A stretch of 64,000 nucleotides of DNA, taken from assembly GCA_049970895.1 (NCBI GenBank), contig JBMFMB010000001.1:135544-199543 (forward strand), written 5' to 3'. The position numbers and the translations under genes are program-made. Shown one piece after another: positions 9,063 to 61,485 of this stretch (within the stretch, counting starts at the first letter, position 1; each line of letters begins with the position of its first letter). The DNA is from Candidatus Bathyarchaeia archaeon. Its GTDB lineage: Archaea > Thermoproteota > Bathyarchaeia > Bathyarchaeales > Bathycorpusculaceae. The notes beneath the pieces are model-generated. The model did no database searches. It had not been told where the DNA came from and worked only from the letters and a program-made list of their open reading frames with translations.

Positions 9063-10376
9063 ATGGGTGAAAAGAGGATGCGCAGCCAAATTCCATTACC
9101 AGTAGATGAGCTCCCAACAAAATGGTATAACATACTGCCAGATCTACCTGAACCATTACCACCCCCAAAGGAACCAGAAACCGGGCCGTCAAGGATGGAG
9201 TTTCTGGCTAGAGTCATGGTTAAGGAGTGTTTGAGGCAGGAGATGTCAAATGAACGTTGGATTCCAATTCCTGAGGAAATTCGCGAACTTTACTTGCACA
9301 TGGGGAGACCTCGGCCTCTTTATCGGGCAATAAGACTGGAAAAGTGTTTAGGGCTTAGGAAGGTTAGGCTTTATTATAAGCGGGAAGATTTGTCTCCAAC
9401 AGGTTCTCACAAAACTAACACGGCGGTTGCTCAAGCTTATTACGCTATGAAAGAGGGAAAAACAACTTTAACAACTGAAACTGGTGCCGGACAGTGGGGA
9501 ACAGCCCTTTCTTATGCCGCACGGCTTTTAGGTTTAGACTGCGTTGTTTTCTGGGTTAAATCCGTCTATGATTGGAAAACGGACAGAAGAACGTTAATGG
9601 AGCTTCTTGGCGCGAAGGTTTACGCTTCACCAAGCCGAGAGACAAAAATTGGTAGGGAGGTTCTCTTGAAAAATCCGGAACATCCAGGTTCGCTTGGAAT
9701 AGCAATTTCAGAGGGGTTAGAGTATGCTGAGACTCATGAAGATGCAGTTTACTGTTTAGGTTCCGTTCTAAACCATGTGCTTATGCACCAGTCCATAATC
9801 GGGTTGGAAACCATAAAGCAGTTTGACCTCATAGATGAGAAACCAGACCTGATAATCGGCTGCCTCGGGGGAGGCTCAAACTTTGGAGGTATAGCCTTAC
9901 CCTTCATTGGCGAAGTTTTGAAAGGGAAAAGGGAATGTGAGTTTTTAGCTGCTCAATCACTTGCAGCCCCAAACCTTGTGAAAGGTGAATATCGTTACGA
10001 CTTCTGTGATGTGGCTGAATACACGCCTCTTCTGAAGGTTTACACGTTGGGGCATAAGGTTGAGATGCCGCCGATAAAAGCCGATGGATTGCGTTATCAT
10101 GCGGCTGCCCCAATAATAAGCCTTTTAAGGCATCATGGCCTTGTGAAAGCAGTGGCTTATCCTATAGATGAGAAGGCTGTTTTTGAGGCAGCAAGGATTT
10201 TCCTCCAAAGCGAGGGATGGTTGCCTGCTCCGGAATCCAGTTATGCCATCCGCGCTGGGATAGACGAAGCCTTAAAAGCCGAAAAAGCCGGGGTTGAAAA
10301 AGTGATTTGCATGAATATAAGCGGACACGGTTTCCTAGACTTGACGGCATATAAGGAAAAGCTTGAAATTGGCTAA
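9063..10376 (+). CDS. trpB2: TrpB2-type tryptophan synthase beta-like PLP enzyme (copy 1)
   Basis: SPTGSHKTNTA (PLP Lys), TETGAGQWG, LGSVLNHV, GGGSNF, SGHG. Confidence 0.9.
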   Translation: MGEKRMRSQIPLPVDELPTKWYNILPDLPEPLPPPKEPETGPSRMEFLARVMVKECLRQEMSNERWIPIPEEIRELYLHMGRPRPLYRAIRLEKCLGLRKVRLYYKREDLSPTGSHKTNTAVAQAYYAMKEGKTTLTTETGAGQWGTALSYAARLLGLDCVVFWVKSVYDWKTDRRTLMELLGAKVYASPSRETKIGREVLLKNPEHPGSLGIAISEGLEYAETHEDAVYCLGSVLNHVLMHQSIIGLETIKQFDLIDEKPDLIIGCLGGGSNFGGIALPFIGEVLKGKRECEFLAAQSLAAPNLVKGEYRYDFCDVAEYTPLLKVYTLGHKVEMPPIKADGLRYHAAAPIISLLRHHGLVKAVAYPIDEKAVFEAARIFLQSEGWLPAPESSYAIRAGIDEALKAEKAGVEKVICMNISGHGFLDLTAYKEKLEIG

Positions 10377-44545: not shown

Positions 44546-45763
44546 TTATTTGTATGGTATATATTCTCTGCCCAGCAGTTCTCTGGCTATGATTATCCTT
44601 TGGATGTTCATGGCTCCTTCTGCGCCTATGTAATAGGACATTATGCCCCGTAGCCCCATTTCCAATGGACAGTCTTTTGTGTAGCCCCAAGCTCCCATCC
44701 ATAAAAGCACATGCTCAAAAACTTTGAAGGCGAAGGGCGGCACCTTCAGTTTAACAGCCGAGATATATTTTGTGACCTCCAGTGGTGTGAAGCGTCCCCT
44801 CTTGTATTTTTCGTCGTTCATCCACGCCGTGCGGTAAACAAGAGATCTTAAAGCTTCCAGCTCAGCCCACATATCAGCCAGATCAAACTGGATACCCTCA
44901 TACTTTCCAATGGGGTTTCCGAAGGCTTTCCGCTCCTTAATATACTCCATCCCAAGCTCCAAGGCTCTTTGGGCAGCCCCCAAACAGGTGGCACCTATAA
45001 GCAGTCTCGCATTATCAAAGCCCTCCATTGTTAGGTAGAAGCCCCTCCCCTCCTCGCCTATGCGGTAGGCATCTGAAAGCCTAACATTATCCATGACTAT
45101 GCTGCCCGTTGAAATGGCCATTCTCCCCATCTCCTCGAATCTTTTGCCAACCTCCACGCCGGGCGCATTTATGGGCAAATAGAAGGCTGTCATGCCCCGA
45201 TGAGATGCGCCGGGCGGCGGTGGCGCAGTCCTAACCAGCGTGAAGTGTCCCCCGCCAAGCTTTTTGGCCTCTTCTGTTCCGCTAATGTAGGTTTTCTCAC
45301 CATTCAAAACCCAGTGGTTCCCGTTTTTCACGCCGGTGGACTTTATGGCTGCAACGTCTGAGCCTCCGCCAGCTTCTGTTGAGGCTATGCCTATGAAGGC
45401 TTCCCCTTTGGCGGCTTTCCGTATAACCTCTTCCCTAACCTTTTCAGTGCAGTACTTGTCAGTTACAAAGCCCCATGAAGCCTCAACCAGGAAAAGCACT
45501 GGCACAGCAATGCTTATGTCAGCATAGCCCAACTCCTCAGCCGCAATACAAGCAGTAACCCAATCTGCACCAGACCCGCCATGCTCTTCGGGCACTGTCA
45601 TGAGCAGCAATCCTAAATCAGCCAAGCCTTTGATTATCTCCATAGGAATTTCGCCTTTGCTGTCCATCTCCCTAACCTTTTCCAGCGTCAGCTCTTTTCG
45701 GCACCACTCGCGGACTGCCTTGCGAAAAAGTTCTTGCTCCTCGGAGAAGCTGAAATCCACCAT
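44546..45763 (-). CDS. acyl-CoA dehydrogenase
   Basis: TEAGGGSD, LNGEKTYIS, RKAFG, GAWGY, EG..NIQR. Confidence 0.92.
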   Translation of the reverse strand: MVDFSFSEEQELFRKAVREWCRKELTLEKVREMDSKGEIPMEIIKGLADLGLLLMTVPEEHGGSGADWVTACIAAEELGYADISIAVPVLFLVEASWGFVTDKYCTEKVREEVIRKAAKGEAFIGIASTEAGGGSDVAAIKSTGVKNGNHWVLNGEKTYISGTEEAKKLGGGHFTLVRTAPPPPGASHRGMTAFYLPINAPGVEVGKRFEEMGRMAISTGSIVMDNVRLSDAYRIGEEGRGFYLTMEGFDNARLLIGATCLGAAQRALELGMEYIKERKAFGNPIGKYEGIQFDLADMWAELEALRSLVYRTAWMNDEKYKRGRFTPLEVTKYISAVKLKVPPFAFKVFEHVLLWMGAWGYTKDCPLEMGLRGIMSYYIGAEGAMNIQRIIIARELLGREYIPYK

Positions 45764-45835
45764 AACTTTTCACCCTTTTAAGCCTAACCTAAATCCTAAA
45801 AGCATATAAAACTTGTTTTAAAAGTCGGCAAATTC

Positions 45836-46363
45836 CTAAACAAGCTGTAAGCCCTTCCTAAAAGCATTTAAATTCACATTCACAGTCTTCTCTGAAATGC
45901 TTTCCCTTATGCTCTTTTCCATGGACTCAACGCTGACCAATTGTGTTATCTTCACCAGTGCCCCGAGGATAATCATGTTGGCGAAGAGGCTTTCTCCGAA
46001 GGCTTTTCTGGCTGTTTCCACCGCTGGCACCTTGAATGTTTTCGCCTTCACCTCTGGTATTTTTTCGACGCTGCTGTCAACTATTAGGGTTCCATCATCC
46101 TTTAAAAGAGGCAGATATTGGTCAAGGGATTCCTGGTTCATAGCCACAAGCACATCACACTTTCTAACCGCTGGAAAACCTATGCGGCTGTCTGAGATTA
46201 TCACTTCGCTTTTTGCTAGGCTTCCGCGGGCTTCGGCGCCATAACTTTGCGTTTGCGCAACATTCTTCCCATCAAAGGCGGCTGCCTTCCCTAAAATCTG
46301 CCCGGCTAACACAACGCCTTGACCGCCATGCCCACCAATAATAACCTCAATTCTTTTAGGCAT
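45836..46363 (-). CDS. 2-oxoacid:ferredoxin oxidoreductase gamma subunit
   Basis: GGHGGQG, SYGAEARG. Confidence 0.92.
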   Translation of the reverse strand: MPKRIEVIIGGHGGQGVVLAGQILGKAAAFDGKNVAQTQSYGAEARGSLAKSEVIISDSRIGFPAVRKCDVLVAMNQESLDQYLPLLKDDGTLIVDSSVEKIPEVKAKTFKVPAVETARKAFGESLFANMIILGALVKITQLVSVESMEKSIRESISEKTVNVNLNAFRKGLQLV

Positions 46364-47186
46364 ATTTCTGCGCTGCCTCCTTCAAAACTGCATAAACACT
46401 TTCCACAAGCGTCAGCCTCCTCCTTTGAACGAATTCTCCGACAACAATTTTGCCTTCAAGCTCTTCTTCCCCCATTTTCTCTGCTTCCGTCACTGGAACG
46501 GCATTTTCCCTAAACCACTTCAGCATTTCCCCAATGTCTTTGAATCCGGCTCTTCTGCCATATGCCGTTGGACATTGAGCGACAACTTCGATGAATCTGA
46601 AGCCGTCCATTTGAAGAGCCTTCTTAAAGCATTCCTTAAGCTCTTTTGGGTGGGCTGTTGTCCACCTAGCCGAATAATTGGCTCCTGCAACAGCCGCTAG
46701 TCTGGCGGCATCCAGTGGATGCTCAAAACTTCCATAAGGAGTTGTCGTCGTCCTCGTTTTCAGTGGGGTTGTTGGCGCCACCTGTCCACCCGTCATTCCG
46801 TAAATCATGTTGTTGCCCATTATGACGAGGATATCTGTGTTTCGCCTTGCAGCGTGTATGAAGTGCCCCATGCCTATGCCGACGATGTCTCCGTCTCCGC
46901 CAAACACAACAACGTGGAGTCCCGGGCGCAGAAGCTTTATGCTAGTAGCCACTGGTATGCTTCTCCCGTGCAATGTGTGAACGGAATCCGCCAAATAATA
47001 TGGCGATGGTATCCATGAGGAACAGCCAATCCCGCTGACAAAGCAGAATTTCCTAAAGTCATCATAGCCAAGCTCGTAAACAGCCCTCAAAAAAGTGTCA
47101 CTAAGCACATATAAACCGCACCCGGGACAAAAAGGAAAACGCAGTCCAGGCCTCAAATATTTACTTGGTGAAAAGCCCTCACGCAT
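46356..47186 (-). CDS. 2-oxoacid:ferredoxin oxidoreductase beta subunit
   Basis: FCPGCG, GIGCS, GDGD, YGMTGGQ. Confidence 0.93.
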   Translation of the reverse strand: MREGFSPSKYLRPGLRFPFCPGCGLYVLSDTFLRAVYELGYDDFRKFCFVSGIGCSSWIPSPYYLADSVHTLHGRSIPVATSIKLLRPGLHVVVFGGDGDIVGIGMGHFIHAARRNTDILVIMGNNMIYGMTGGQVAPTTPLKTRTTTTPYGSFEHPLDAARLAAVAGANYSARWTTAHPKELKECFKKALQMDGFRFIEVVAQCPTAYGRRAGFKDIGEMLKWFRENAVPVTEAEKMGEEELEGKIVVGEFVQRRRLTLVESVYAVLKEAAQKYA

Positions 47187-47190
47187 CTAT

Positions 47191-48339
47191 TTATCCCTCC
47201 AAAATCTTGTCCAAAATCTCTTCTGGAGTGATTAGTTCTCCACCACCAATCTTGTTTAGGGGCACAACTTCTGCGGTGCAGCCGGCAACCCTCTTAACCT
47301 CGTTGACTATTTGTCCCAAGTTCATTTCTGGCACAATTATTTTTTCAGCGTTTTCCGCAAGCCTCTGCACTGGTTTTTCTGGGAAGGGCCAAAGGGTTTT
47401 AAGGCGGACATAGCCAACTTTAACCCCTCTTTTTTCGGCTTCATCAACAGCCTCGTAGATTGCCCGCGATGTAATGCCGTAAGCCACTATGCCAACCCTA
47501 CAGTCTTCAATGTTGTAGCTTTCCACCTCCACAATGTCGTCTACATTCTTCCTTATCTTGTTGTTAATAGCTTCCACGACTCGCCTATGCACTGTGGGGT
47601 CGGCGGTGAACCTAACCCCCCGCTCATCGTGGGTTGAGCCGGTAACAGCCACATTAAACCCCTCGCCTATGGAAGGCATCGGCGCAACACTTTCCAAGCC
47701 AAAAAATGCTTGCTCTCCAGCCTTTGGCTTTTTACGGTTAACTATCTCTATGCTTTCTGAGGGTGGTATGAGTAAGTGCTCTCGAAGATGCATCGTAGTC
47801 TCATCCGCTAAGATGATGACTGGCGTGCGATATTTTTCTGCAAGGTTAAAAGCCCTAATGGTGAGTTCGAAAATCTCCTGAACGGAGTTGGGACAAAGCG
47901 AAACAGCCATGTAGTCGCCATGGGTCCCCCAGCGGGCTTGCATAACATCGCCTTGCGCACACTTAGTCGCCTGCCCAGTGCCTGGACCAACCCTCTGAAC
48001 ATCAACAATGACGCATGGCGTCTCAGTCATGAAAGCCCATCCAATGGTCTCCTGCATCAAACTAAACCCCGGACCGGAGGTGGCTGTCATAGCTTTAACA
48101 CCACACCAACTTGCACCGACAACAGCTCCTATTGAGGCTAGCTCATCCTCCATTTGTAGAAATACGCCGCCAACCTTCGGTAGGCGCGCCGCCATGTGTT
48201 CAGAAATCTCATTAGCTGGCGAAATGGGATAACCAGCAAAAAATCTGCAACCAGCAATTAATGCGGCTTCAACACATGCCTCGCTTCCCTGTAGAAAAGC
48301 CCTTGTTCCCTTTTCACATCCCATTTTAAGCACCGTCAA
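47191..48339 (-). CDS. 2-oxoacid:ferredoxin oxidoreductase alpha subunit
   Basis: AGYPISP, QMEDE, TATSGPGFSLM, PEMNLGQ; start may be the ATG at 48324. Confidence 0.93.
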   Translation of the reverse strand: MTVLKMGCEKGTRAFLQGSEACVEAALIAGCRFFAGYPISPANEISEHMAARLPKVGGVFLQMEDELASIGAVVGASWCGVKAMTATSGPGFSLMQETIGWAFMTETPCVIVDVQRVGPGTGQATKCAQGDVMQARWGTHGDYMAVSLCPNSVQEIFELTIRAFNLAEKYRTPVIILADETTMHLREHLLIPPSESIEIVNRKKPKAGEQAFFGLESVAPMPSIGEGFNVAVTGSTHDERGVRFTADPTVHRRVVEAINNKIRKNVDDIVEVESYNIEDCRVGIVAYGITSRAIYEAVDEAEKRGVKVGYVRLKTLWPFPEKPVQRLAENAEKIIVPEMNLGQIVNEVKRVAGCTAEVVPLNKIGGGELITPEEILDKILEG

Positions 48340-48480: not shown

Positions 48481-49123
48481 GTGAACCCTATTGGCAATAG
48501 GCGAACCCTTTCAGGAGTTTTCAAAGCTACAAGAAACCGCATATTCTTCTACGACTTTAGGCAAGCTAACTACATTTCTGGCATGACAGCCAAAGACCTT
48601 GTAGAGGGAAGACTTCCGAAACCCGCCGCTGGCATATATGACGCTGAAATGCCGCTTCTTATCCAGTGCAGATATCACCAGGCAACTATCGCCTCGCATG
48701 GTATGTGCCCATTTATTGGCGTGAAACCGCAAGTGGAAAAGAGGAAACCATCTATTTGGCGGGTTTCGCCATAGTTGATGCAGAGGAAACCAGCAAGATA
48801 GCCATAAAAATGCATGAGGAGGACGTGACAAGCGAACAGTTAGTGCGCGCCACGAAGCTAGGGTTTCTAAAACTTTTCGGCATAATAACCGAAATAGAGG
48901 TCAGCGCCAAGGTTTTGGGCAAATACGAGTACGTGGAAGATGGGACAACCCACATAGTCCTTCGCTTGGATAACTCGACATACGAGTGGGTGGAAGCAAC
49001 CCCAAAAGATCTCCAGCAGACCAGTGGAACAAGTTAATGCAACAGAAAGAGATCACACGGTAACTTGCATATTGAAAGGTATGGGGAAAAATGGATAATA
49101 ACCGCCTTCGAAAACCCGGACGT
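48481..49123 (+). pseudogene. fragment of a larger uncharacterised gene
   Basis: overlapping ORF pieces (FFYDFRQANYISG / YRLAWYVPIYW / YVEDGTTHIV) in shifting frames; ends approximate. Confidence 0.5.
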
Positions 49124-49627
49124 CTAGTAAACAGAGACTTTTGCAACGCCCTTAACCTTTAAGAATTCTGGAATAAGCTCACCTGGAACCTTCCTCTCCA
49201 CAATAAGTGTCAGCTTAGGCTCCGGAGAAAGCTCCGGATCGTCCACGATAGCCTGCCTTATACTAAGACCGCTTCTTGCCAGTATCATGGCTGAGTTTGC
49301 CAATATGCCTGGTATTCTGGCGTCTACCGGTGTTATTTCCACCACGCCAAGTTCCAAGTGTTTTGCTATTTCCTTTAGCGAGTGCCCCGCAGATCTTAAG
49401 CCTTCAAATATTAGGCGGAGCTCGCGGTTTGCCCTTATCGTTTTTATTGTTTCGTTTACTGTTCTTCTGTCTACTCCAGCTACTCTCGCTATGCGGGTTG
49501 GCGGAATCTCTATCTCGTTAAGGTATATCTTTCCATTTTTTACGCTTAGCCCGTTTTCTACGAGGATTTTGGCTACTTTTAGGCGTTCGGGGTAGTTTTC
49601 AAAGTGCCTTTTTATTGTGTTCCACAT
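49124..49627 (-). CDS. trpY: TrpY-like (COG2150) HTH-ACT regulator
   Basis: IARVAGVDRRTV HTH, C-terminal ACT (GILA..SIRQAIVDDPEL); divergent from trpB2. Confidence 0.8.
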   Translation of the reverse strand: MWNTIKRHFENYPERLKVAKILVENGLSVKNGKIYLNEIEIPPTRIARVAGVDRRTVNETIKTIRANRELRLIFEGLRSAGHSLKEIAKHLELGVVEITPVDARIPGILANSAMILARSGLSIRQAIVDDPELSPEPKLTLIVERKVPGELIPEFLKVKGVAKVSVY

Positions 49628-49642
49628 GTTTCCGTCTCCTAA

Positions 49643-49715
49643 TGTACTTTTTTGTGCAATAAAGTATAAATATGTTCACTGTTTTATTACATGCCTAAAT
49701 GCACTAAAATGTGCA
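49643..49715. promoter_or_regulatory. two TGYAC-N6-GTGCA palindromic operators (TRP-box-like)
   Basis: TGTACTTTTTTGTGCA at 49643-49658 and TGCACTAAAATGTGCA at 49700-49715, flanking a TATA-like AT stretch. Confidence 0.75.
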
Positions 49716-49728
49716 AAGGTGAACCTTA

Positions 49729-51090
49729 ATGAGCTTTAAAGTTCAAAAAAATGAATACTTCACATTGCTAGACGCGGATGAAATCCCCACAGCATGGTAC
49801 AACATCCAAGCAGACCTACCAGAACTGCTCCCACCGCCACTGGACCCCACAACCCTAAAGCCCATAGACTCAAAACTGCTCGAGAGAATATTTGCAAAAG
49901 AGCTGATAAAGCAGGAGGTTTCCACAGAACGTTTCATAAAAATCCCAGAAGAGGTTTTAGAAGCCTATTTGAGGTTGCCGAGACCAACGCCGCTTTACCG
50001 TGCTAGAAGACTTGAAAGATTTCTGAAAACTCCGGCAAAAATCTACTTTAAATGCGAGAATTTTAGTCCAACTGGAAGCCATAAGACGAATACTGCCATA
50101 GCCCAAGCCTACTACAACAAGAAACAAGGCATAAAGAGACTAGTGACGGAAACTGGTGCCGGGCAGTGGGGAACAGCCCTAGCCTTTGCCTGCACAATTT
50201 TCGGTTTAAAATGCCGCATATACATGGTTCGCGTTAGCTACCAGCAGAAGCCGGGAAGAAGAACAATAGCACAGTTGTATGGCGCTGAAATGTTCCCATC
50301 GCCAAGCGACCAGACAAACTTTGGAAGGAAACTCTTGAAGGAGAATCCAAACCATCCTGGAACGCTAGGCATAGCCATAAGCGAAGCCATAGAGGACACA
50401 GTTACACATGAAGATACAAGGTACTCTTTGGGCTCTGTTCTAAACCATGTGCTTTTGCACCAAACCATCATTGGCTTAGAGGCTAAAAAGCAGTTTGAGA
50501 TTATTGGCGAGTATCCGGATGTTGTATGCGGTTGCATAGGCGGAGGCTCCAACTATGCTGGCTTCTGCTACCCCTTCATGATGGACAAGCTCAAGGGCAA
50601 GACTGAAACGGAGTTTGTGGCTTGCGAGTCTAAGGCTGTTCCCCACACAACAAAAGGCGTTTATACATACGACTTCGGAGACACAGCCCAACTAACACCA
50701 CTGCTCAAAATGCTTACAATAGGGCATGGCTATGCTTGCCCACCAATCCACGCCGGAGGCTTAAGGTATCATGGCATGGCACCATCAATATCCTACCTAA
50801 TCCATAAAGGATACATGCGCTCAATAGCCTATCACCAAACAGAAGTCTTTCAAGCAGCCCAAATATTAGCCCAAACAGAAGGTCTCATAATTGCTCCTGA
50901 AACAGCCCACAGCCTAAAATTCGTCATAGATGAAGCCTTGCGATGCAGAAAAACTGGCGAGAAAAAGGTTATTGCCATGAACTATAGCGGACATGGACTA
51001 TTGGATTTAGGCGCTTATGAGCAGTTCTTGGCTGGCAAGCTTGTGGATTACGAGCCGGAAAAAATCGAGGTCCCCCAGTTATTAAAATAG
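49729..51090 (+). CDS. trpB2: TrpB2-type tryptophan synthase beta (copy 2)
   Basis: SPTGSHKTNTA, TETGAGQWG, YDFGD, PPIHAGGLRYHG, SGHG. Confidence 0.92.
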   Translation: MSFKVQKNEYFTLLDADEIPTAWYNIQADLPELLPPPLDPTTLKPIDSKLLERIFAKELIKQEVSTERFIKIPEEVLEAYLRLPRPTPLYRARRLERFLKTPAKIYFKCENFSPTGSHKTNTAIAQAYYNKKQGIKRLVTETGAGQWGTALAFACTIFGLKCRIYMVRVSYQQKPGRRTIAQLYGAEMFPSPSDQTNFGRKLLKENPNHPGTLGIAISEAIEDTVTHEDTRYSLGSVLNHVLLHQTIIGLEAKKQFEIIGEYPDVVCGCIGGGSNYAGFCYPFMMDKLKGKTETEFVACESKAVPHTTKGVYTYDFGDTAQLTPLLKMLTIGHGYACPPIHAGGLRYHGMAPSISYLIHKGYMRSIAYHQTEVFQAAQILAQTEGLIIAPETAHSLKFVIDEALRCRKTGEKKVIAMNYSGHGLLDLGAYEQFLAGKLVDYEPEKIEVPQLLK

Positions 51091-51112
51091 CCGATAATAG
51101 GGCGACTTTAAA

Positions 51113-51766
51113 GTGGCAACCAAAACAAAAACTGAAAAGGCAGAAGCGTTCAAAATTGCCATCTTACCAATCGACTCGCTAAAGCCCCACGAGAAGGGCT
51201 CCCCATTATATCTAGAAATGCTAAAAAGGGAGATTCAAAAGGACGATGTCTTAAAATATCCGATAATCGCCGATGAAAAAACAAACGTCATACTCGACGG
51301 AATGCACCGATGGCTTGCACTAAAAAGTTTGGGCTACACGCAAATACCAGTTCTTCAAGTCAACGTTTTCCAGAATCCCCAAATTCGCATCGGTAGGAGG
51401 CGCATCCACAGATACATTGGCAACTCAAACCCGCCAATAACAGCCGAACATGTGGTTGCAGCAGCCTTAAGCGGAAAACTTTTGGAACCAAGAACCACAA
51501 GGCACTTCTTCCCCTTCATGAAACCTCCAAAAATCAACTATCCGCTAAACTCTCTGGAAAAGAGCAAACCGCAGGATGTTTCCAAATATCTCGCAGAAAC
51601 GACGCCGGAAGAAAGCCGAAAAGCCATAAAAGGTTGGCTTGAGGAAATATCAGAAGAACTGGAATTCCTAAAACAGAGAATTGACGAGGTGGAAAAGGAA
51701 AGGGAGGAGTTCATAAACAGAATAAAAAACCTGAACTCAAACAACCACAATTTTTCCAACCCCTAA
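51113..51766 (+). CDS. ParB/Srx-fold protein, SerK/SbnI-like serine kinase candidate
   Basis: LKPHE, ILDGMHR, LEPRTTRH motifs; C-terminal coiled coil. Confidence 0.7.
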   Translation: MATKTKTEKAEAFKIAILPIDSLKPHEKGSPLYLEMLKREIQKDDVLKYPIIADEKTNVILDGMHRWLALKSLGYTQIPVLQVNVFQNPQIRIGRRRIHRYIGNSNPPITAEHVVAAALSGKLLEPRTTRHFFPFMKPPKINYPLNSLEKSKPQDVSKYLAETTPEESRKAIKGWLEEISEELEFLKQRIDEVEKEREEFINRIKNLNSNNHNFSNP

Positions 51767-51936
51767 TCCCCCTTTTGTCCATCTTGCCCGATACTTTTCC
51801 AGATAAGAGCGCTAAAAACTTTAGAGGGGTAGTGTATTTGCAAAATTTTCTCAACTACAAAATGACCTGGACAAGCATTGGGTTTTGGGCAAGTTTTAAT
51901 ACGTTTTGAGGCATCATAATAGCAGAGGCTTAAGCC

Positions 51937-53046
51937 ATGATCCCAATAAATGCTCCACAAATAGGCGAAGAGGAAGTTGAGGCTGTTGTAAAGGTTTTGA
52001 AAAGCGGCATCCTCACCAACGCGCTTGGTGCCGGACCAATGGTTAGGCGTTTTGAGGAGGATTTTGCAAGGTTTGTTGAGGCTAAACATGCCATAGCAGT
52101 GAACAGTGGTACAGCAGCATTGCACATGGCTCTTGCGGCTGTTGACGTAAAGCAGGGCGACGAAGTGGTTTTGCCAAGCTTCACTTTTGTGGCCACAGCT
52201 GAAACCGTCGTGCTGGCCGGAGCAAAACCAGTCTTTGTGGACATAGACCCGGAAACCTACAACATCTCTCCAGAAGCGGTAAAGAAGGCTTTGACTAAAA
52301 GGACTAGGGCGATAGTTGCCGTAGACCTTTACGGCACACCAGCAGACCTAAAACCGATAAGGGAGATAGCCGACGAGCACGGGTTAAAGGTTATCGAGGA
52401 TGCAGCCCAAGCCCACGGTGCAACTTATAATGGCAAGCCGGTAGGCGCTTACGCGGATGCCGCGTGCTGGAGCTTCTATGCAAGCAAGAACATGACAACA
52501 GGCGAAGGCGGCATGATAACCACAAATGACGATGACGTTGCCGAAAAATTGAGGCTTATAAGAAGCCATGGAGAGAAGGAGAAATACAAATCCATTCTTT
52601 TAGGACACAACTACAGAATGCCAGAAATGGAAGCAGCATTAGGCATTGTGCAACTGAAAAAACTGCCAAAATTCTTGGAAAAGCGGAGGGAAAACGCGGA
52701 AAGGCTAACAGCAAAACTCCGCCACTTAAAAAATCTCCAACTGCCACTTGAGCCTAAAGGCTGCAGGAACAGCTGGTACCTCTACACTGTGAGAGTTAAA
52801 GACGCGGACAGAGCGAAAAGAGACGCAGTTGTGAAAAAACTGAAAGGGGAGGGCGTAGGCGCCGAAGTATATTATCCTTGGCCAATCCATCTAATGCCCT
52901 ACTACCGCAAATTTGGAAAGGAGCGGCTTCCAGAAACAGAAAAAGCCTCAGAGCAGGTGTTTTCCCTACCAGTTCATCCAGGCGTCACAGCTGAGCAAGT
53001 AAACTTCATAGGTGAGGCTGTTTCTCGTCTGGTGGGGCGAGGTTGA
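51937..53046 (+). CDS. DegT/DnrJ/EryC1/StrS family aminotransferase
   Basis: VNSGTAAL, IEDAAQAHGA, SFYASKNMTTGEGG. Confidence 0.92.
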   Translation: MIPINAPQIGEEEVEAVVKVLKSGILTNALGAGPMVRRFEEDFARFVEAKHAIAVNSGTAALHMALAAVDVKQGDEVVLPSFTFVATAETVVLAGAKPVFVDIDPETYNISPEAVKKALTKRTRAIVAVDLYGTPADLKPIREIADEHGLKVIEDAAQAHGATYNGKPVGAYADAACWSFYASKNMTTGEGGMITTNDDDVAEKLRLIRSHGEKEKYKSILLGHNYRMPEMEAALGIVQLKKLPKFLEKRRENAERLTAKLRHLKNLQLPLEPKGCRNSWYLYTVRVKDADRAKRDAVVKKLKGEGVGAEVYYPWPIHLMPYYRKFGKERLPETEKASEQVFSLPVHPGVTAEQVNFIGEAVSRLVGRG

Positions 53047-53126: not shown

Positions 53127-54461
53127 ATGGCAAAAACTAGGGTTATTATAATGGGCGCAGCTGGAAGGGACTTCCACAATTTTAACGTCTATTTTAGGGA
53201 TAACGACGCCTACGAGGTTGTGGCCTTCACAGCCACACAGATTCCCGGCATAGAGGGACGCATATACCCGCCGGAGCTGGCGGGCAAAAACTATCCAAAG
53301 GGGATACCAATTTATCCTGAAGAGGAACTTGCAAGGCTGATAAGGGATTTTGACGTCGACCAAGTGGTTTTCGCCTACAGCGACGTCTCCCACGAATATG
53401 TCATGCACAAAGCGTCGATAGCGCTAGCAAACGGCGCAGACTTCAGACTGATGGGACCGAAGACAACTATGCTTAAGGCTAAGGTGCCAGTAATCTCTGT
53501 AGGCGCCGTGAGAACAGGTTCTGGAAAAAGCCAAACCTCACGGCAAGTAGCAAAAATCTTGAAGGGCAAAGGCTTAAAAGTTGTGGTGATTAGGCATCCA
53601 ATGCCCTATGGCGATTTGAGAAAACAGATTTGCCAACGCTTCGCCACATATGAAGACCTTGACAAATACGAGTGCACTATTGAGGAAAGAGAGGAGTACG
53701 AACCCCACATAGACAATGGAGTAGTTGTATACGCTGGGGTTGACTACGAGAAAATTTTGAGAGAAGCCGAAAAAGAGGCAGACATAATCGTCTGGGACGG
53801 AGGAAACAACGACATACCCTTCTATAAGCCGGACCTCCACATTGTTGTGGCAGACCCTCATAGGGCGGGACATGAAATCACATATCACCCGGGAGAAGCC
53901 AACCTCAGAATGGCGAATGTTGTGATAATAAATAAGGTGGATACGGCGGACCCGAAAAACGTTAACCTAGTTAAGGAGGATATAAGGAAGGTTAATCCAA
54001 ACGCCACCATTATTGAGGCGTCGTCGCCAATAACCGCTGACAAGCCAGAGCTGATTAAGGGTAGGCGTGTTCTTGTCATTGAAGATGGGCCGACATTAAC
54101 CCATGGAAACATGCCCTATGGTGCAGCGACAATATTGGCGAAGCAGCTTGGAGCCAGCGAATTAGCAGACCCAAGACCATACGCTGTAGGCTCAATAAAG
54201 GAGGCTTATGAGGAATACCCTCATCTTGGGGCGGTTCTGCCAGCCTTAGGCTATGGAGAAAAACAGATCGAAGAGTTGAAAGAGACAATAGCCAAAACGC
54301 CATGCGACGTCGTTGTCATCGGGACACCAGTAGACCTAAGAAGAGTCATAGAAATTAACAAGCCAACAGTAAGGGTGAAATACGAACTCAAAGTTCTGGG
54401 GCCGCTGTCCCTAGAACAGATTTTAGAAGACTTTCTAGGAAAAGTGCATAAATATGGCTGA
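53127..54461 (+). CDS. COG2403 P-loop protein (cyclic 2,3-diphosphoglycerate synthase-like / arginine synthetase-like)
   Basis: GAAGRDFHNFN, RTGSGKS, RHPMPYG, WDGGNND, EDGPTLTHG. Confidence 0.85.
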   Translation: MAKTRVIIMGAAGRDFHNFNVYFRDNDAYEVVAFTATQIPGIEGRIYPPELAGKNYPKGIPIYPEEELARLIRDFDVDQVVFAYSDVSHEYVMHKASIALANGADFRLMGPKTTMLKAKVPVISVGAVRTGSGKSQTSRQVAKILKGKGLKVVVIRHPMPYGDLRKQICQRFATYEDLDKYECTIEEREEYEPHIDNGVVVYAGVDYEKILREAEKEADIIVWDGGNNDIPFYKPDLHIVVADPHRAGHEITYHPGEANLRMANVVIINKVDTADPKNVNLVKEDIRKVNPNATIIEASSPITADKPELIKGRRVLVIEDGPTLTHGNMPYGAATILAKQLGASELADPRPYAVGSIKEAYEEYPHLGAVLPALGYGEKQIEELKETIAKTPCDVVVIGTPVDLRRVIEINKPTVRVKYELKVLGPLSLEQILEDFLGKVHKYG

Positions 54462-55798: not shown

Positions 55799-56020
55799 TC
55801 ATCTGCCCATAACTTTTCTGGCGGCAATCTCGATGTCTTCAGCCTTTATAGTCTTCCTTCCAGTGTGCATTGCAAAGTCCAGAGCTTCTTTTGCTATCTT
55901 TATCCCTATTTCTTCTAGGGCTTTTGCGAGTTCTCTTGCAGCTGCCTCACTCACACGGTCAGCTCCAGCTTTCTTACAAAGCCTGTGCATGGGGGCTATT
56001 GCCAACTCTAAATCTGCCAT
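55799..56020 (-). CDS. archaeal histone (HMf-type)
   Basis: ELAIAPMHRL..GADRVS..HTGRKTIKAEDI; GGAGG RBS. Confidence 0.95.
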   Translation of the reverse strand: MADLELAIAPMHRLCKKAGADRVSEAAARELAKALEEIGIKIAKEALDFAMHTGRKTIKAEDIEIAARKVMGR

Positions 56021-57744: not shown

Positions 57745-58923
57745 TTAACCTTTCAGCTTTTCAACAGCCTTGCCTATGCGGTCTATAGCCTTCTTAATGT
57801 TCTCAACGGAGTTAGCGAAAGATATACGCAAATAACCCTCGCCATACTTTCCAAAGGAAGTGCCGGGCAAAACAGCCACGCCAGCCTCATTGAGCAAGTA
57901 GTCCGAAAACTCCTTGGACTTCTTTCCAACGCCCTTTATGTTGGGGAAAACGTAGAAGGCGCCTTTAGGCTTTTTACACGTTATACCCTTAATGTTGTTT
58001 AAGCCTTCAACAATGACCTCTCTACGCTTTCTGAACTCTGCAACCATTTTTTCAACGGAATCCTGCGGACCTTTGAGGGCTTCAACGCCAGCCATTTGGA
58101 CAAAGGCACAAGTGCAGGAGTTTGAGTTAACCATCAGCTGTGTTATCTTTTCTGCTATGTCTTTCCGCATGACACCGTAGCCAAGCCTCCAGCCAGTCAT
58201 AGCGTAAGTTTTCGAAAAGCCGTCCAATATGATTGTCTTCTCCTTCATTCCCGGAAGCGAAGCAATACTTTCATGGGTTCCCTCATAGATTATTCTGCTG
58301 TAAATTTCGTCTGAAAGCACAATTACATCGTCTCTTTTGGTTATGCAGTCGGCAATAACCTTCAAATCCTCCTTCGTCAAAACGCCGCCTGTCGGGTTTT
58401 CAGGCGAATTCAAAATGATCATTTTGGTTTTCTTGGTTATCTTCTCCTTAACATATTCGTGGTCTAGTCTGAAATCGTTCTCCTCCAAAAGTGGAATAGG
58501 CACAGGTTTTGCTCCGACAAAGTTTATCATGGACTCGTAAATTGGGAAGCCGGGATTTGGGTATAGGACTTCCTCACCGCGGTCCACACACGCCAGTATT
58601 GCGAAGAACATTATTGGCTTTGCACCGGGAGTGACGACAACCTCTTCGGGGTCTACTGGAATCTTCCTAGTTTTTGAAATGTATTCGGCTATGGCTTCCC
58701 GCAGTTCTGGAATGCCGGCGGCTGGCACATAGTGGGTGTAACCAGCGTAAAGAGCCTTCACAGCGGCTTCCTTAATGTTCTTGGGCGTGTCAAAATCTGG
58801 TTCGCCTATTTCCAAGTGGATTATTTCTTTTCCTTGCCTCTCAAGGGCTTTTGCGCGGGCAAGCACCTCAAAAGCCGTTTCAGTCCCTAAGGATGCCATT
58901 CTGTCCGCAAATATGGAAATCAT
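57745..58923 (-). CDS. class I PLP-dependent aminotransferase
   Basis: GEPDF, NSPENPTG, SDEIY, GFSKTYAMTGWRLG; ATG at 58923 inferred. Confidence 0.92.
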   Translation of the reverse strand: MISIFADRMASLGTETAFEVLARAKALERQGKEIIHLEIGEPDFDTPKNIKEAAVKALYAGYTHYVPAAGIPELREAIAEYISKTRKIPVDPEEVVVTPGAKPIMFFAILACVDRGEEVLYPNPGFPIYESMINFVGAKPVPIPLLEENDFRLDHEYVKEKITKKTKMIILNSPENPTGGVLTKEDLKVIADCITKRDDVIVLSDEIYSRIIYEGTHESIASLPGMKEKTIILDGFSKTYAMTGWRLGYGVMRKDIAEKITQLMVNSNSCTCAFVQMAGVEALKGPQDSVEKMVAEFRKRREVIVEGLNNIKGITCKKPKGAFYVFPNIKGVGKKSKEFSDYLLNEAGVAVLPGTSFGKYGEGYLRISFANSVENIKKAIDRIGKAVEKLKG

Positions 58924-59007
58924 CAGCAACACCCAACATCCAAGGTGAATTGAAAGTAGCATGAAGAGAGTATTTAACCATTACAGTTGGAAGAGTGGAA
59001 AATCATG

Positions 59008-60015
59008 TCAAAAGAGCTTTGATAATGGACGCACCTTGACAACTTCGGGGTTAACCAGGTTAGGCGGAGTTCTGCCCTCAAAGAACGCAACCAAATTTTC
59101 AGCCACCATCTCAGCCATCCTTGAACGCGTCTCATAACTGGCACTTGAAATATGCGGCGCCACAACAACATTGTCGAGCTTAAGCAGAGGATTATCCACC
59201 GGCGTTGGTTCCTGCTCAAAAACGTCTAGGGCTGCGCCTGCAATCCATCCCTCCTTCAAAGCCTTATAAAGGGCCTTTTCGTCGACAACTGGTCCTCTGG
59301 AATTGTTAATTAAGTATGCGGTTTTCTTCATAAGCTTAAGCTTCTCCTCATTGATTAGGTGATAAGTTTCCTTCATCAACGGGACGTGGATGCTCACGAA
59401 GTCGGATTCCCTTAAAAGCGTGTCTAGGTCCACACGTTTTGCGCCAAGCTCCTTTTCAATCTCAGGCGGCATGGGCACAACATCGTAATAGAGAATTTTC
59501 ATGTTGAAGCCTTTCGCCCTCCGCGCAACCGCCGTTCCTATTCTGCCAGCCCCGACAATGCCTAATGTTGCGCCATAAACATCCCTGCCCAGCAACATGC
59601 TTGGATGCCAACTAACCTTCCACTGCCCAGTACGCACATACCTATCTGCCTCAACAACACGTCTTGCAACAGCCATAAGCAAAGCCCAAGCAAAATCCGC
59701 TGTGGTTTCTGTTAAAACGCCAGGCGTGTTTGTGACGTATATTCCCCTTTTTGTGGCTTCAGCAACATCTATGTTGTCAAAGCCAACAGCCATCTGAGCC
59801 ACAATTTTCAGTTTTGGCGCAGCATCAAAAACTTCAGCGTCAATCTTATCCGATAAGAGTGTGACTAAAGCGTCAACGTTCCTTGCTTTTCGTATTATTT
59901 CCGCCTTTGGAGGTGGACCATACTCAGGCCAGACCTCAGCTTCGAAACGTTCCATTATTATTTTCATGCCCCTTTCTGGAAGCTCTCGGGTTACGTAAAC
60001 CTTAGGCTTAGCCAT
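59008..60015 (-). CDS. gyaR: glyoxylate/hydroxypyruvate reductase (D-2-hydroxyacid dehydrogenase)
   Basis: [39 protein letters not shown]; ATG at 60015 inferred. Confidence 0.88.
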
Positions 60016-60108
60016 AATGTTCACCTATGTGTGCAAAACACTTTATTAAAGCTCAACTTATTACATTTACGATTCGCTCCATTTAAAAGCCTCAATGGTG
60101 CCTGAAAG

Positions 60109-61485
60109 ATGACAATAATCAAGAATGCTGGGCAGATAGTGCAGAACGGCGAAACACGCCTTAATAAAAGGGCAAGGAAGCTAGCCCTAAAAAGCCTCGA
60201 AGCCGCCATCAAAGCTGTAGATCCAAAAGCGATAATAAAGTCAAAAATTAGGCTTAAAGGCTTCATCCTCCAAGTTAACGGGCACTCTTTTGACCTTAAA
60301 AAATTTAAGAGCATATATGTTGTTGGCGGTGGAAAGGCAAGCGGCTCCATGGCTGAAGCCTTAGAGGAGGTCTTGGGCGACAAAATCACAAACGGGCTCG
60401 TCAACATCCCAAAAGGAAGCTTGCATCAAACAAAGATAGTTAAGCTTCATGAGGCAAGCCACCCAATCCCAGATGAGTCTGGAGTTGAGGGGACGAGGAA
60501 AATGCTTGAAATGGCAGAAAAAGCCGGCGAAGACGACTTGATAATTTGCTTAATTTCTGGGGGTGGCTCCAGCCTAATGCCGATGCCAAAAGGCGAAATC
60601 ACAGTAGCCGACAAAAGGCGTATAACAGAGGACTTGCTGAAGTGCGGTGCCACAATAAATGAGATAAACACTGTTAGAAAGCACATTTCAGAGTTTAAGG
60701 GGGGCTGGCTTGCGAAAAAGGCTTATCCTGCAACAATCCTAAACCTCATCTTATCAGATGTTTTAGGCGACCCGCTTGATTTTATCGCCTCAGGTCCCAC
60801 AGTTCCAGACTCCACAACCTTCAGCGACGCCATCAAAGTTCTGAAAAAGTATGGTTTGTGGGATAAAGCACCCGAATCAATAAAGAAAGTTTTAACAGAC
60901 GGCGAAAAGGGGCTCATTCCAGAAACACCTAAAGCTGGCGATGAAGCCTTTAAAAAAGTTTTCAATGTTGTTATTGGAAACAATCGGGCTGCAAGCATGG
61001 CGGCATGTGAAACCCTAAAATCTGAGGGGTTAAACACGCTTTTGCTCACTTCGCTTCTCGAAGGAGAGGCAAGACACGTTGGAACAGTGCTGGCTTCAAT
61101 AGCCCGCGAAGTTTCGGCTTCCGGAAACCCGGTTAAAAAGCCCGCTGGCATAGTGGCTGGAGGTGAAACAACAGTCACGGTCACCGGAAAAGGCAAGGGT
61201 GGAAGGAACCAAGAAATAGCCCTAGCGGCTTCAATGAAAATTAGAGGCTTAGATGGAGTTGTTATAGCCTCGTTAAGCACGGACGGGGTGGATGGACCAA
61301 CAGATGCTGCTGGGGCAATAGCTGACGGAAAAACCATAGCCAGAGCGGAGGCTTTGGGGCTTAGGGCTGAGGAATTTTTGGCGGACAACAACTCCTATGG
61401 CTTCTTCTCTAAGCTTGGTGACCTGATCTTTACTGGTCCAACAGGCACAAACGTCAACGACGTATCAATTATTATTGTATTATAG
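60109..61485 (+). CDS. gck: glycerate 2-kinase (MOFRL family)
   Basis: GGGKA, ISGGGSSL, GGETTV, GGRNQE, TDGVDG, TGTNVND. Confidence 0.92.
   Translation: MTIIKNAGQIVQNGETRLNKRARKLALKSLEAAIKAVDPKAIIKSKIRLKGFILQVNGHSFDLKKFKSIYVVGGGKASGSMAEALEEVLGDKITNGLVNIPKGSLHQTKIVKLHEASHPIPDESGVEGTRKMLEMAEKAGEDDLIICLISGGGSSLMPMPKGEITVADKRRITEDLLKCGATINEINTVRKHISEFKGGWLAKKAYPATILNLILSDVLGDPLDFIASGPTVPDSTTFSDAIKVLKKYGLWDKAPESIKKVLTDGEKGLIPETPKAGDEAFKKVFNVVIGNNRAASMAACETLKSEGLNTLLLTSLLEGEARHVGTVLASIAREVSASGNPVKKPAGIVAGGETTVTVTGKGKGGRNQEIALAASMKIRGLDGVVIASLSTDGVDGPTDAAGAIADGKTIARAEALGLRAEEFLADNNSYGFFSKLGDLIFTGPTGTNVNDVSIIIVL

Follow-up and report, generated by a model that had tools for sequence, protein, structure and literature searches.

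The closest described counterparts of the three genes considered here, which lie side by side in a 64,000-nucleotide (nt) stretch of contig JBMFMB010000001.1 from Candidatus Bathyarchaeia archaeon (the window, taken at its full length), are the free-serine kinases SbnI and SerK, the tryptophan synthase beta paralogue TrpB2 and the regulator TrpY. SbnI, from a bacterial siderophore context, is a dedicated serine kinase encoded beside a phosphoserine-using enzyme, with SbnA as the pyridoxal 5'-phosphate (PLP)-dependent user of its phosphoserine, and its NCBIfam name gives it a second role as a transcriptional regulator. SerK of Thermococcus kodakarensis (TK0378, structure 5x0b; its Pyrococcus homologue is 1vk1) uses ADP and feeds phosphoserine to cysteine synthase, a PLP-dependent beta-replacement enzyme of fold type II (PMC5120207); clear SerK homologues are reported in Thermococcales and Desulfurococcales only (Makino et al. 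2016, PMC5120207), and one archaeal SerK-like protein is reported to bind CTP (PMC12704722). For TrpB2 enzymes, use of O-phospho-L-serine has been described (Busch 2014, cited in PMC11917138), the co-substrates reported are serine and phosphoserine (PMC11917138), the affinity for indole is given as high (PMC11917138, citing Hettwer and Sterner 2002), and in Thermococcus the enzyme is reported to act in indole salvage (Hiyama 2014). TrpY is reported to regulate trpB2 in Methanothermobacter (Karr 2008). In the bathyarchaeal locus a trpB2 gene is followed directly by a gene for a 217-residue relative of SerK and SbnI and is divergent from a trpY gene, and the reading that we favour, and consider probable, is that TrpB2 salvages indole with O-phosphoserine supplied by a compact serine kinase, under repression by tryptophan.

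The original prediction for this DNA had described this same layout, with a 22-nt gap between trpB2 and a ParB-fold gene whose product carries KPHE, DGMHR and PRTTRH motifs, and all of these elements are present where it placed them (Table 1). The 453-residue trpB2 product exceeds the cut-offs of both TrpB2 models (699.5 bits against 366 for NF009057 and 682.7 bits against 518.85 for TIGR01415) and falls under that of the TrpB1 model TIGR00263 (160.8 bits against 392.45). Its best solved relatives are 6hul_B (2.6e-150), 4qys_B (2.8e-141) and 6hte_B (4.1e-141), chains that are named tryptophan synthase beta and that we take to be Sulfolobus TrpB2 enzymes; its segment AGGLRYHG is identical in 4qys, 6hte and 6hul, and a 67-residue piece of the protein, when compared with the Protein Data Bank (PDB), matched TrpB2 structures only; opposite its R346, TrpB1 enzymes presumably have an Asp. 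The protein is highly similar to the solved chains, and what distinguishes it is its setting, in that it is encoded in a genome in which neither TrpA nor other trp genes were found and is paired with a kinase-like gene, a pairing of which the literature search found no description. The 22-nt spacer suggests that the two genes may be read on one transcript. The sequencing runs listed for positions 49100-51800 are four DNA runs labelled hot springs metagenome, two of which may be the source, with no RNA run among them.

In the case of the 217-residue protein, the only NCBIfam matches are SerK (NF053625, E 7.2e-14, 51.5 bits) and SbnI (NF033589, E 3.2e-9, 36.5 bits), both far below the equivalog cut-offs, so that it is a distant relative of both and an equivalog of neither. 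Homologues at E <= 0.001 number 618 among 837 candidates, and public records label its relatives as 'ParB N-terminal domain-containing protein' or as hypothetical. When the single sequence is searched against the PDB, SbnI (5uje) is the best match at 9.7e-10, with SerK (5x0b) at 7e-7, and a profile built from an alignment of 13 members of the family (A1) finds 5x0b at 1.9e-16 in two blocks, profile positions 10-92 corresponding to SerK 14-99 and positions 109-147 to SerK 204-241. All three SerK motifs have aligned equivalents. Residue E27, the last of KPHE, is the equivalent of SerK Glu30, because the aligned position reads Q or A in the E30Q and E30A entries: the motif is KPHE in wild-type 5x0b, KPHQ in 5x0j and KPHA in 5x0e, the latter two being named in Foldseek entry labels as the E30Q and E30A mutants of free serine kinase. 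The DGMHR motif has its counterparts in the aligned DGHHR (SerK) and DGVHR (SbnI), and PRTTRHFFPF aligns with the C-terminal PKTTRHVLPF of SerK inside block 204-241. Within A1, D62, G63, R66 and P126 are invariant, and at least 90% of the members retain E27, H65, R130 and H131. The HE of the first motif aligns with SbnI as well, in which Glu20 and Asp58 are presumably the catalytic residues and the Asp of DGxHR presumably is Asp58; both the Glu of KPHE and the Asp of DGxHR, on which the prediction would have foundered had they failed to align, are thus accounted for.

The predicted fold gives the same picture. An AlphaFold2 model of the protein computed from A1 has a mean pLDDT (predicted local distance difference test score) of 88.0 and a pTM (predicted template modelling score) of 0.79, and the top nine Foldseek matches to it are all SerK or SbnI entries, which on VIA re-alignment reach Z 12.0-18.0, compared with at most 7.9 for sulfiredoxin, Noc and ParB. 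The best VIA match is 1vk1 (Z 18.0, root mean square deviation 1.8 Å over 126 residues, 27% identity), with Z 16.5 for 5x0j and 15.5 for 5uje; taken together, the SerK entries align with Z 13.3-18.0 and deviations of 1.8-3.0 Å over 126-138 residues at 25-28% identity, and the SbnI entries with Z 12.0-15.5. The model and the profile comparison therefore group the protein with SerK and SbnI, with which it shares a ParB/sulfiredoxin-like core, well above ParB and sulfiredoxin, and it is of SerK/SbnI type rather than a DNA-clamp ParB. The protein had been expected to be shorter than SerK and to end in a coiled-coil tail, and both expectations are borne out, the first by the two SerK blocks that are all the profile covers, and the second by the single helix that DSSP assigns to residues 165-210 of the model (block pLDDT 88-96 over residues 161-210). 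Compared with SerK, then, the protein is without one segment (SerK residues about 100-203) and has an extra helix, some 45 residues long, for which SerK offers no counterpart, and its partner gene is trpB2 instead of cysK; SbnI differs from it in having a larger C-terminal part. In searches with the A1 hidden Markov model (HMM), TrpB2-linked proteins and the nucleotidyltransferase-linked relatives described below match in one piece, tail included, proteins of 128-166 residues match the core alone, whereas in SerK-like proteins of 209-306 residues the match, as in SerK itself, is split in two by a gap of about 50-110 residues; the missing central segment and the tail are thus a trait of the family and no truncation.

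The pairing with trpB2 is conserved. One genome per prokaryote species was scanned, which yielded 80 loci (numbered with the prefix L), all 80 of which were examined by tblastn, and the records of the close relatives of the 217-residue protein belong to Candidatus Bathyarchaeia. Every one of the 73 Bathyarchaeia loci (L006-L077 and L082), across which the kinase-like protein is 55-86% identical, has trpB2 immediately upstream in the same orientation, and the spacers are similarly short in most of the related loci. Of the 73, 66 also have trpY upstream in the opposite orientation, and the remaining seven are cut off by the end of the contig no more than about 90 bases from trpB2. The pairing is kept in L039, L047, L053 and L054, in which the adjacent TrpB2 is just 50-57% identical to that of the window, and it is found as well in loci whose downstream genes differ from the usual ones or are missing (L036, L044, L048, L062, L064, L068 and L072, for example). 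A 266-residue metagenomic protein, P0128, reads from a TrpB2 end straight into a kinase-like domain, and because its sequence looks frameshifted it probably counts as adjacency rather than as a true fusion.

The rest of the tryptophan pathway could not be found in this genome. The assembly that contains the window has 1,344,016 bases in 79 contigs and is estimated to be 97.26% complete and 1.89% contaminated, and in the whole of it the best scores are 23 bits for trpA and 18 bits for indole-3-glycerol-phosphate synthase (trpC), with no match for trpD or for the chorismate-binding family (trpE), so that none is over its cut-off; each of the four families was found in all 14 control genomes. The lack of a TrpA that had been noticed in the window thus extends to the 1.34-Mb genome. 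There are two full copies of TrpB-like genes in the genome, both in the window, together with a fragment on a contig of 729 bases. The second full copy encodes a 437-residue paralogue (NF009057, 595.7 bits) that is 54% identical to the kinase-linked copy, and it is a stand-alone gene with no kinase-like neighbour and no TGTACA-like boxes upstream. The fragment scores 77.4 bits to TIGR00263 and may stem from a third paralogue, from duplication during assembly or from contamination.

The distribution of the kinase-like gene in the class was surveyed in a sample of 301 genomes, with a SerK-like match defined by E <= 1e-10 and an orthologue-level match by E <= 2.1e-38 and at least 56% identity, a level that is separated by a clear gap from the next match at 2.3e-23. 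Some SerK-like match occurs in 128 of the 301 genomes and an orthologue-level match in 14. Of all 301 genomes, 131 have trpA over its cut-off, but only one of the 14 orthologue genomes (G145) is among them, against 130 of the 287 others; in the family to which the window's genome belongs (that genome, G000, being left out), the orthologue is present in 1 of 33 genomes with trpA and in 7 of 15 without it. TrpD is over its cut-off in G145 and not in the orthologue genomes G008, G072, G286 and G062. A phylum-wide sample of 401 genomes gave matches at E <= 1e-25 in six, all of them in the class families f1 and f4. The orthologue is complementary to trpA, which we read as a consistent pattern rather than as a statistic because related genomes are not independent and some of them are incomplete.

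The divergent gene and the region between it and trpB2 bear on the possible control by tryptophan. The 167-residue product passes the cut-off of the TrpY family NF053754 (194.5 bits against 180, covering residues 2-164 of 167). In an alignment of 15 loci, the intergenic region contains an invariant TATA-like core, AAAGTATAAATAT, flanked by conserved TGTACA-like half-sites, two on the trpY side (conserved ATGTAC and GTGCA) and a further two, (A/C)GTACA or TGTACA-like, that separate the core from the start of trpB2, TGTACA being the TRP box consensus for TrpY. The 101-nt control region holds four GTRCA/TGYAC pentamers against 0.19 expected, a number that is reached in 0.12% of all 101-nt stretches of the window; a second pentamer cluster near position 2,700 falls inside a coding open reading frame and looks like chance. 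The arrangement fits the layout of a putative TrpY operator, as in Methanothermobacter thermautotrophicus, where trpY is likewise divergent from the gene it regulates and TGTACA-like boxes overlap the shared promoter; unlike the TrpY of that organism, which acts on a full trp operon, the regulator here would control a salvage unit of two genes.

A supply of phosphoserine from elsewhere in metabolism is not apparent either. Neither SerB nor the phosphoglycerate dehydrogenase PGDH is over its cut-off in the genome, and the usual phosphorylated serine pathway, a would-be source of phosphoserine, is not evident from its genes, because there is no SerB over the cut-off and the best PGDH-like gene is a glyoxylate reductase (NF009714, 546.9 bits against 455). 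SepRS, another phosphoserine user, was not found in the genome (88.9 bits against 380.65). This glyoxylate/hydroxypyruvate reductase gene is located in the window, flanked by genes for an aminotransferase and a glycerate-2-kinase-like protein, with which it forms a cluster that looks like a non-phosphorylated serine/glycerate route, which would fit a cell needing phosphoserine made by a kinase.

An HMM search of all six-frame open reading frames in the genome finds exactly two SerK-like proteins, and the second of them, on contig C3, has 576 residues in three parts. Its first part is an intact compact kinase core with the motifs REHEE, DGEHR and PKTTCH, 39% identical to the 217-residue protein over 120 residues, its second is a degenerate second copy of the core, and its third is a CysK/M-like PLP enzyme, whose score of 189.9 bits falls short of the 344-bit cut-off. 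In six other genomes of the class, matches fall in open frames of comparable length (546-597 residues), and P0148 is one representative of the fusion. The fusion looks like a one-polypeptide version of the route from serine through phosphoserine to cysteine that is reported as established for SerK in Thermococcus (Makino 2016, PMC5120207). In this genome the compact core is linked on two separate occasions to a beta-replacement enzyme whose fold type is that of tryptophan synthase beta. A separate structural observation concerns the O-phosphoserine sulfhydrylase chains 3vsc_A and 1wkv_B, presumably from Aeropyrum pernix, residues 2-75 of which align with the core of the kinase-like model at Z 5.5-5.8, a weak match below the safe level, which hints that the extra N-terminal domain of that enzyme may be the remnant of a fused SerK-like core.

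The way in which the three products would work together can be set out as follows. When tryptophan is scarce, TrpY would release the divergent promoters, the 217-residue protein would phosphorylate free L-serine to O-phospho-L-serine, and TrpB2 would condense the O-phosphoserine with indole taken from the environment, yielding L-tryptophan and phosphate; when tryptophan is plentiful, TrpY on the TGTACA-like boxes around the shared TATA-like core would shut both promoters. On this reading, the remainder of the tryptophan pathway has been lost from the bathyarchaeal genome in which the unit sits. The original prediction had proposed just such a phosphoserine-dependent indole salvage, and every computational check that it named, from the comparison with SerK and SbnI to the survey of the gene pair, lends it support.

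Several observations weigh against this reading. The 217-residue protein lies far under both equivalog cut-offs, which stand at 380 bits for SerK and 350 bits for SbnI, and the central SerK segment of about 100 residues that is absent from it may matter for serine binding. The second trpB2 paralogue stands without an adjacent kinase. One genome, G145, carries the orthologue together with both trpA and trpD, and the contrast in trpA overstates its significance, the genomes being related. The window's genome also has a class-V aminotransferase of the serine/aspartate-glyoxylate type, and given this gene a non-canonical route to phosphoserine is possible. The linkage is confined to one class, and two genes downstream of the pair, for a DegT-type aminotransferase and a 444-residue P-loop protein, are largely syntenic too, so that conserved gene order is only partly independent evidence. 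The remaining points come from the nearest relatives outside the class, and they bear at once on what the protein might phosphorylate.

These relatives are encoded in seven distant loci (33-38% identity), which by their record names belong to Saccharibacteria, Mariniphaga, Woesearchaeota, Methanosarcinales, two Nanoarchaeota and Sulfurovum, and in 7 of 7 neither trpB2 nor trpY is present. The proteins nevertheless have the same compact core and tail, matching the A1 HMM from position 6-22 up to 205-212. Several carry a fused domain of cytidylyltransferase-like, NTP-transferase or asparagine-synthase-like type, and in five of the six loci scanned (L083 being left out) a cytidylyl- or nucleotidyl-transferase is fused or adjacent (Table 1). 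Nearby there are genes for CDP-alcohol (cytidine diphosphate-alcohol) phosphatidyltransferases in three loci (L078, L081 and L085) and for Asp/Glu racemases in three (L078, L079 and L085), as well as for glycosyltransferases and methyltransferases. This context suggests a scheme in which a small molecule would be phosphorylated, activated with a nucleotide and transferred, and its substrate need not be serine; in the bacteria and the DPANN archaea concerned, the pathway, which is possibly undescribed, may attach an activated small alcohol, which could be serine, to a lipid or to a surface polymer, and the ancestral substrate of the family could be a small alcohol other than serine. All catalytic motifs are common to the TrpB2-linked and the nucleotidyltransferase-linked groups, and because they are identical in both, the motifs cannot settle the substrate of the 217-residue protein.

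From these relatives, which share the whole architecture, comes the alternative that survives best, namely that we are dealing with a SerK-family kinase of small molecules whose substrate is not L-serine but, for example, a C3 alcohol or another hydroxy-amino acid, or whose product is not meant for TrpB2. We regard it as unlikely, since the only characterised members, SerK and SbnI, both phosphorylate free serine, going by paper titles and PDB entry names, all 73 bathyarchaeal loci adjoin trpB2, the co-substrates reported for TrpB2 are serine and phosphoserine, and the CysK/M-like fusion in the same genome fits the formation of phosphoserine.

A second alternative takes the gene order as inherited synteny without coupling, with the ParB-fold protein serving some unrelated process. 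It can draw on the synteny of the DegT-type aminotransferase and P-loop genes in most loci and on the kinase-like protein evolving faster than its neighbour (55-86% identity, against 78-96% for TrpB2 in most loci), but it has to contend with the 22-nt spacer, with the retention of the pair both where the downstream genes vary or are absent and beside a TrpB2 of 50-57% identity, and with a distribution that is complementary to trpA, and we hold it to be distinctly unlikely.

It is also conceivable, albeit quite improbable, that the protein catalyses nothing and serves TrpB2 as a nucleotide-binding partner or scaffold, perhaps as an allosteric activator that replaces TrpA and docks by its long helix. 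In other proteins the ParB/sulfiredoxin fold is reported to have a switching or scaffolding function (PMC12704722), the long C-terminal helix is without a SerK counterpart, and the genome is without TrpA; yet the equivalent of Glu30 and the other kinase motifs are strictly conserved, which would be unexpected for a mere scaffold, and the same helix is found in relatives that have no TrpB2 beside them. That the protein is a DNA-binding partition or regulatory protein of ParB type, as the NCBI name of its relatives and the precomputed PF02195 match of some of them would have it, is very improbable, since Pfam and NCBIfam scans of the 217-residue protein gave no ParB_N at E <= 0.01, no helix-turn-helix domain and no match to the ParB partition model TIGR00180. 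What follows the core is a single long helix, and ParB/Noc structures reach at most Z 7.7 on the AlphaFold2 model, with about 85 residues aligned, where the serine kinases reach Z 18.

The two syntenic genes that follow the kinase-like gene, the second of which has weak CobW/HypB-type matches only, show no apparent link to the trp unit. On the other side, upstream of trpY, genes for an acyl-CoA dehydrogenase and a 2-oxoacid:ferredoxin oxidoreductase look like amino-acid or 2-oxoacid catabolism; of these, only the dehydrogenase and the alpha subunit were scanned, and the alpha subunit scores 542.9 bits to NF006412.

Table 1 Positions of the locus, its neighbours in the window and the related loci (window positions unless a locus label is given)
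Feature	Location	Strand	Remarks
trpY	49124..49627	-	167 residues; TrpY-family helix-turn-helix and ligand-binding regulator, divergent from trpB2
Divergent control region	49628..49728	.	101 nt between trpY and trpB2
trpB2	49729..51090	+	453 residues; TrpB2-type PLP-dependent tryptophan synthase beta paralogue
Spacer between trpB2 and kinase-like gene	51091..51112	+	22 nt
Compact SerK/SbnI-family gene, putative free-serine kinase	51113..51766	+	217 residues; GTG start; core about 10-150
KPHE motif	51182..51193	+	Residues 24-27 of the 217-residue protein
DGMHR motif	51296..51310	+	Residues 62-66 of the 217-residue protein
PRTTRH motif	51488..51505	+	Residues 126-131 of the 217-residue protein
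C-terminal long helix, coiled-coil-like tail	51605..51742	+	Residues 165-210, AlphaFold2 model
Second trpB2 paralogue	9063..10376	+	437 residues
TrpB-like fragment	L004:247-582		Contig C44 (729 bases)
SerK-like fusion with CysK/M-like part	L087:637-2367	+	Contig C3; 576 residues
Nucleotidyltransferase-linked relatives	L078:1720-4784, L079:3631-6969, L080:1229-2218, L081:4486-6600, L085:5590-8748
Acyl-CoA dehydrogenase and oxidoreductase genes	44546..48339	-	Gamma-, beta- and alpha-like subunits of 2-oxoacid:ferredoxin oxidoreductase
Open reading frame between oxidoreductase genes and trpY	48666..49037	+	123 residues; no Pfam or NCBIfam match; may be no gene
DegT/DnrJ/EryC1-type sugar aminotransferase	51937..53046	+	After the kinase-like gene; syntenic in most related loci
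P-loop protein	53127..54461	+	444 residues; syntenic in most related loci
Open reading frame	55799..56020	-	73 residues; resembles an archaeal histone by eye
Putative serine/glycerate cluster	57745..61485		The three genes below
Aminotransferase	57745..58962	-
Glyoxylate/hydroxypyruvate reductase	59008..60024	-
Glycerate-2-kinase-like gene	60109..61485	+

Both kinds of enzyme were already known, and the novelty lies in a compact kinase subfamily that has been paired in a dedicated way with TrpB2, in genomes in which no trp pathway was found. A literature search, judged in part from titles and the starts of abstracts, found no publication that links TrpB2 with a serine kinase. The 2025 survey of the ParB-CTPase fold (PMC12704722) mentions SerK and SbnI, with PLP-enzyme or cytidylyltransferase partners absent from its main text and no mention of SerK or Bathyarchaea in its supplementary text. 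The preference of TrpB2 for O-phosphoserine was reported in 2014 (Busch 2014, cited in PMC11917138), and its physiological setting has since been unclear. The conserved and putatively tryptophan-regulated operon is the first genomic context found that would explain where the phosphoserine for TrpB2 comes from, in genomes showing neither the remaining trp genes nor any evident phosphorylated serine pathway.

More tentatively, and as a possibility that we would not yet call probable, some Bathyarchaeia may have replaced the TrpA-TrpB pair by a compact serine kinase and TrpB2, with O-phosphoserine obligatory in vivo and the cells being indole-dependent tryptophan auxotrophs that live on the indole of their neighbours, and the core may be a reusable serine activation module that has been combined with TrpB2 for tryptophan, with CysK/M-like enzymes for cysteine and, in bacteria and DPANN archaea, with nucleotidyltransferases for some other activated product. 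If this is true, many members of a very abundant uncultured class of archaea would depend on environmental indole, and such dependence would be useful to know in attempts at cultivation and in models of cross-feeding. With regard to the family, SerK and SbnI relatives reach well beyond the Thermococcales, the Desulfurococcales and the staphylococci, and the minimal catalytic core, some 150 residues long, is found again and again in combination with other partner enzymes.

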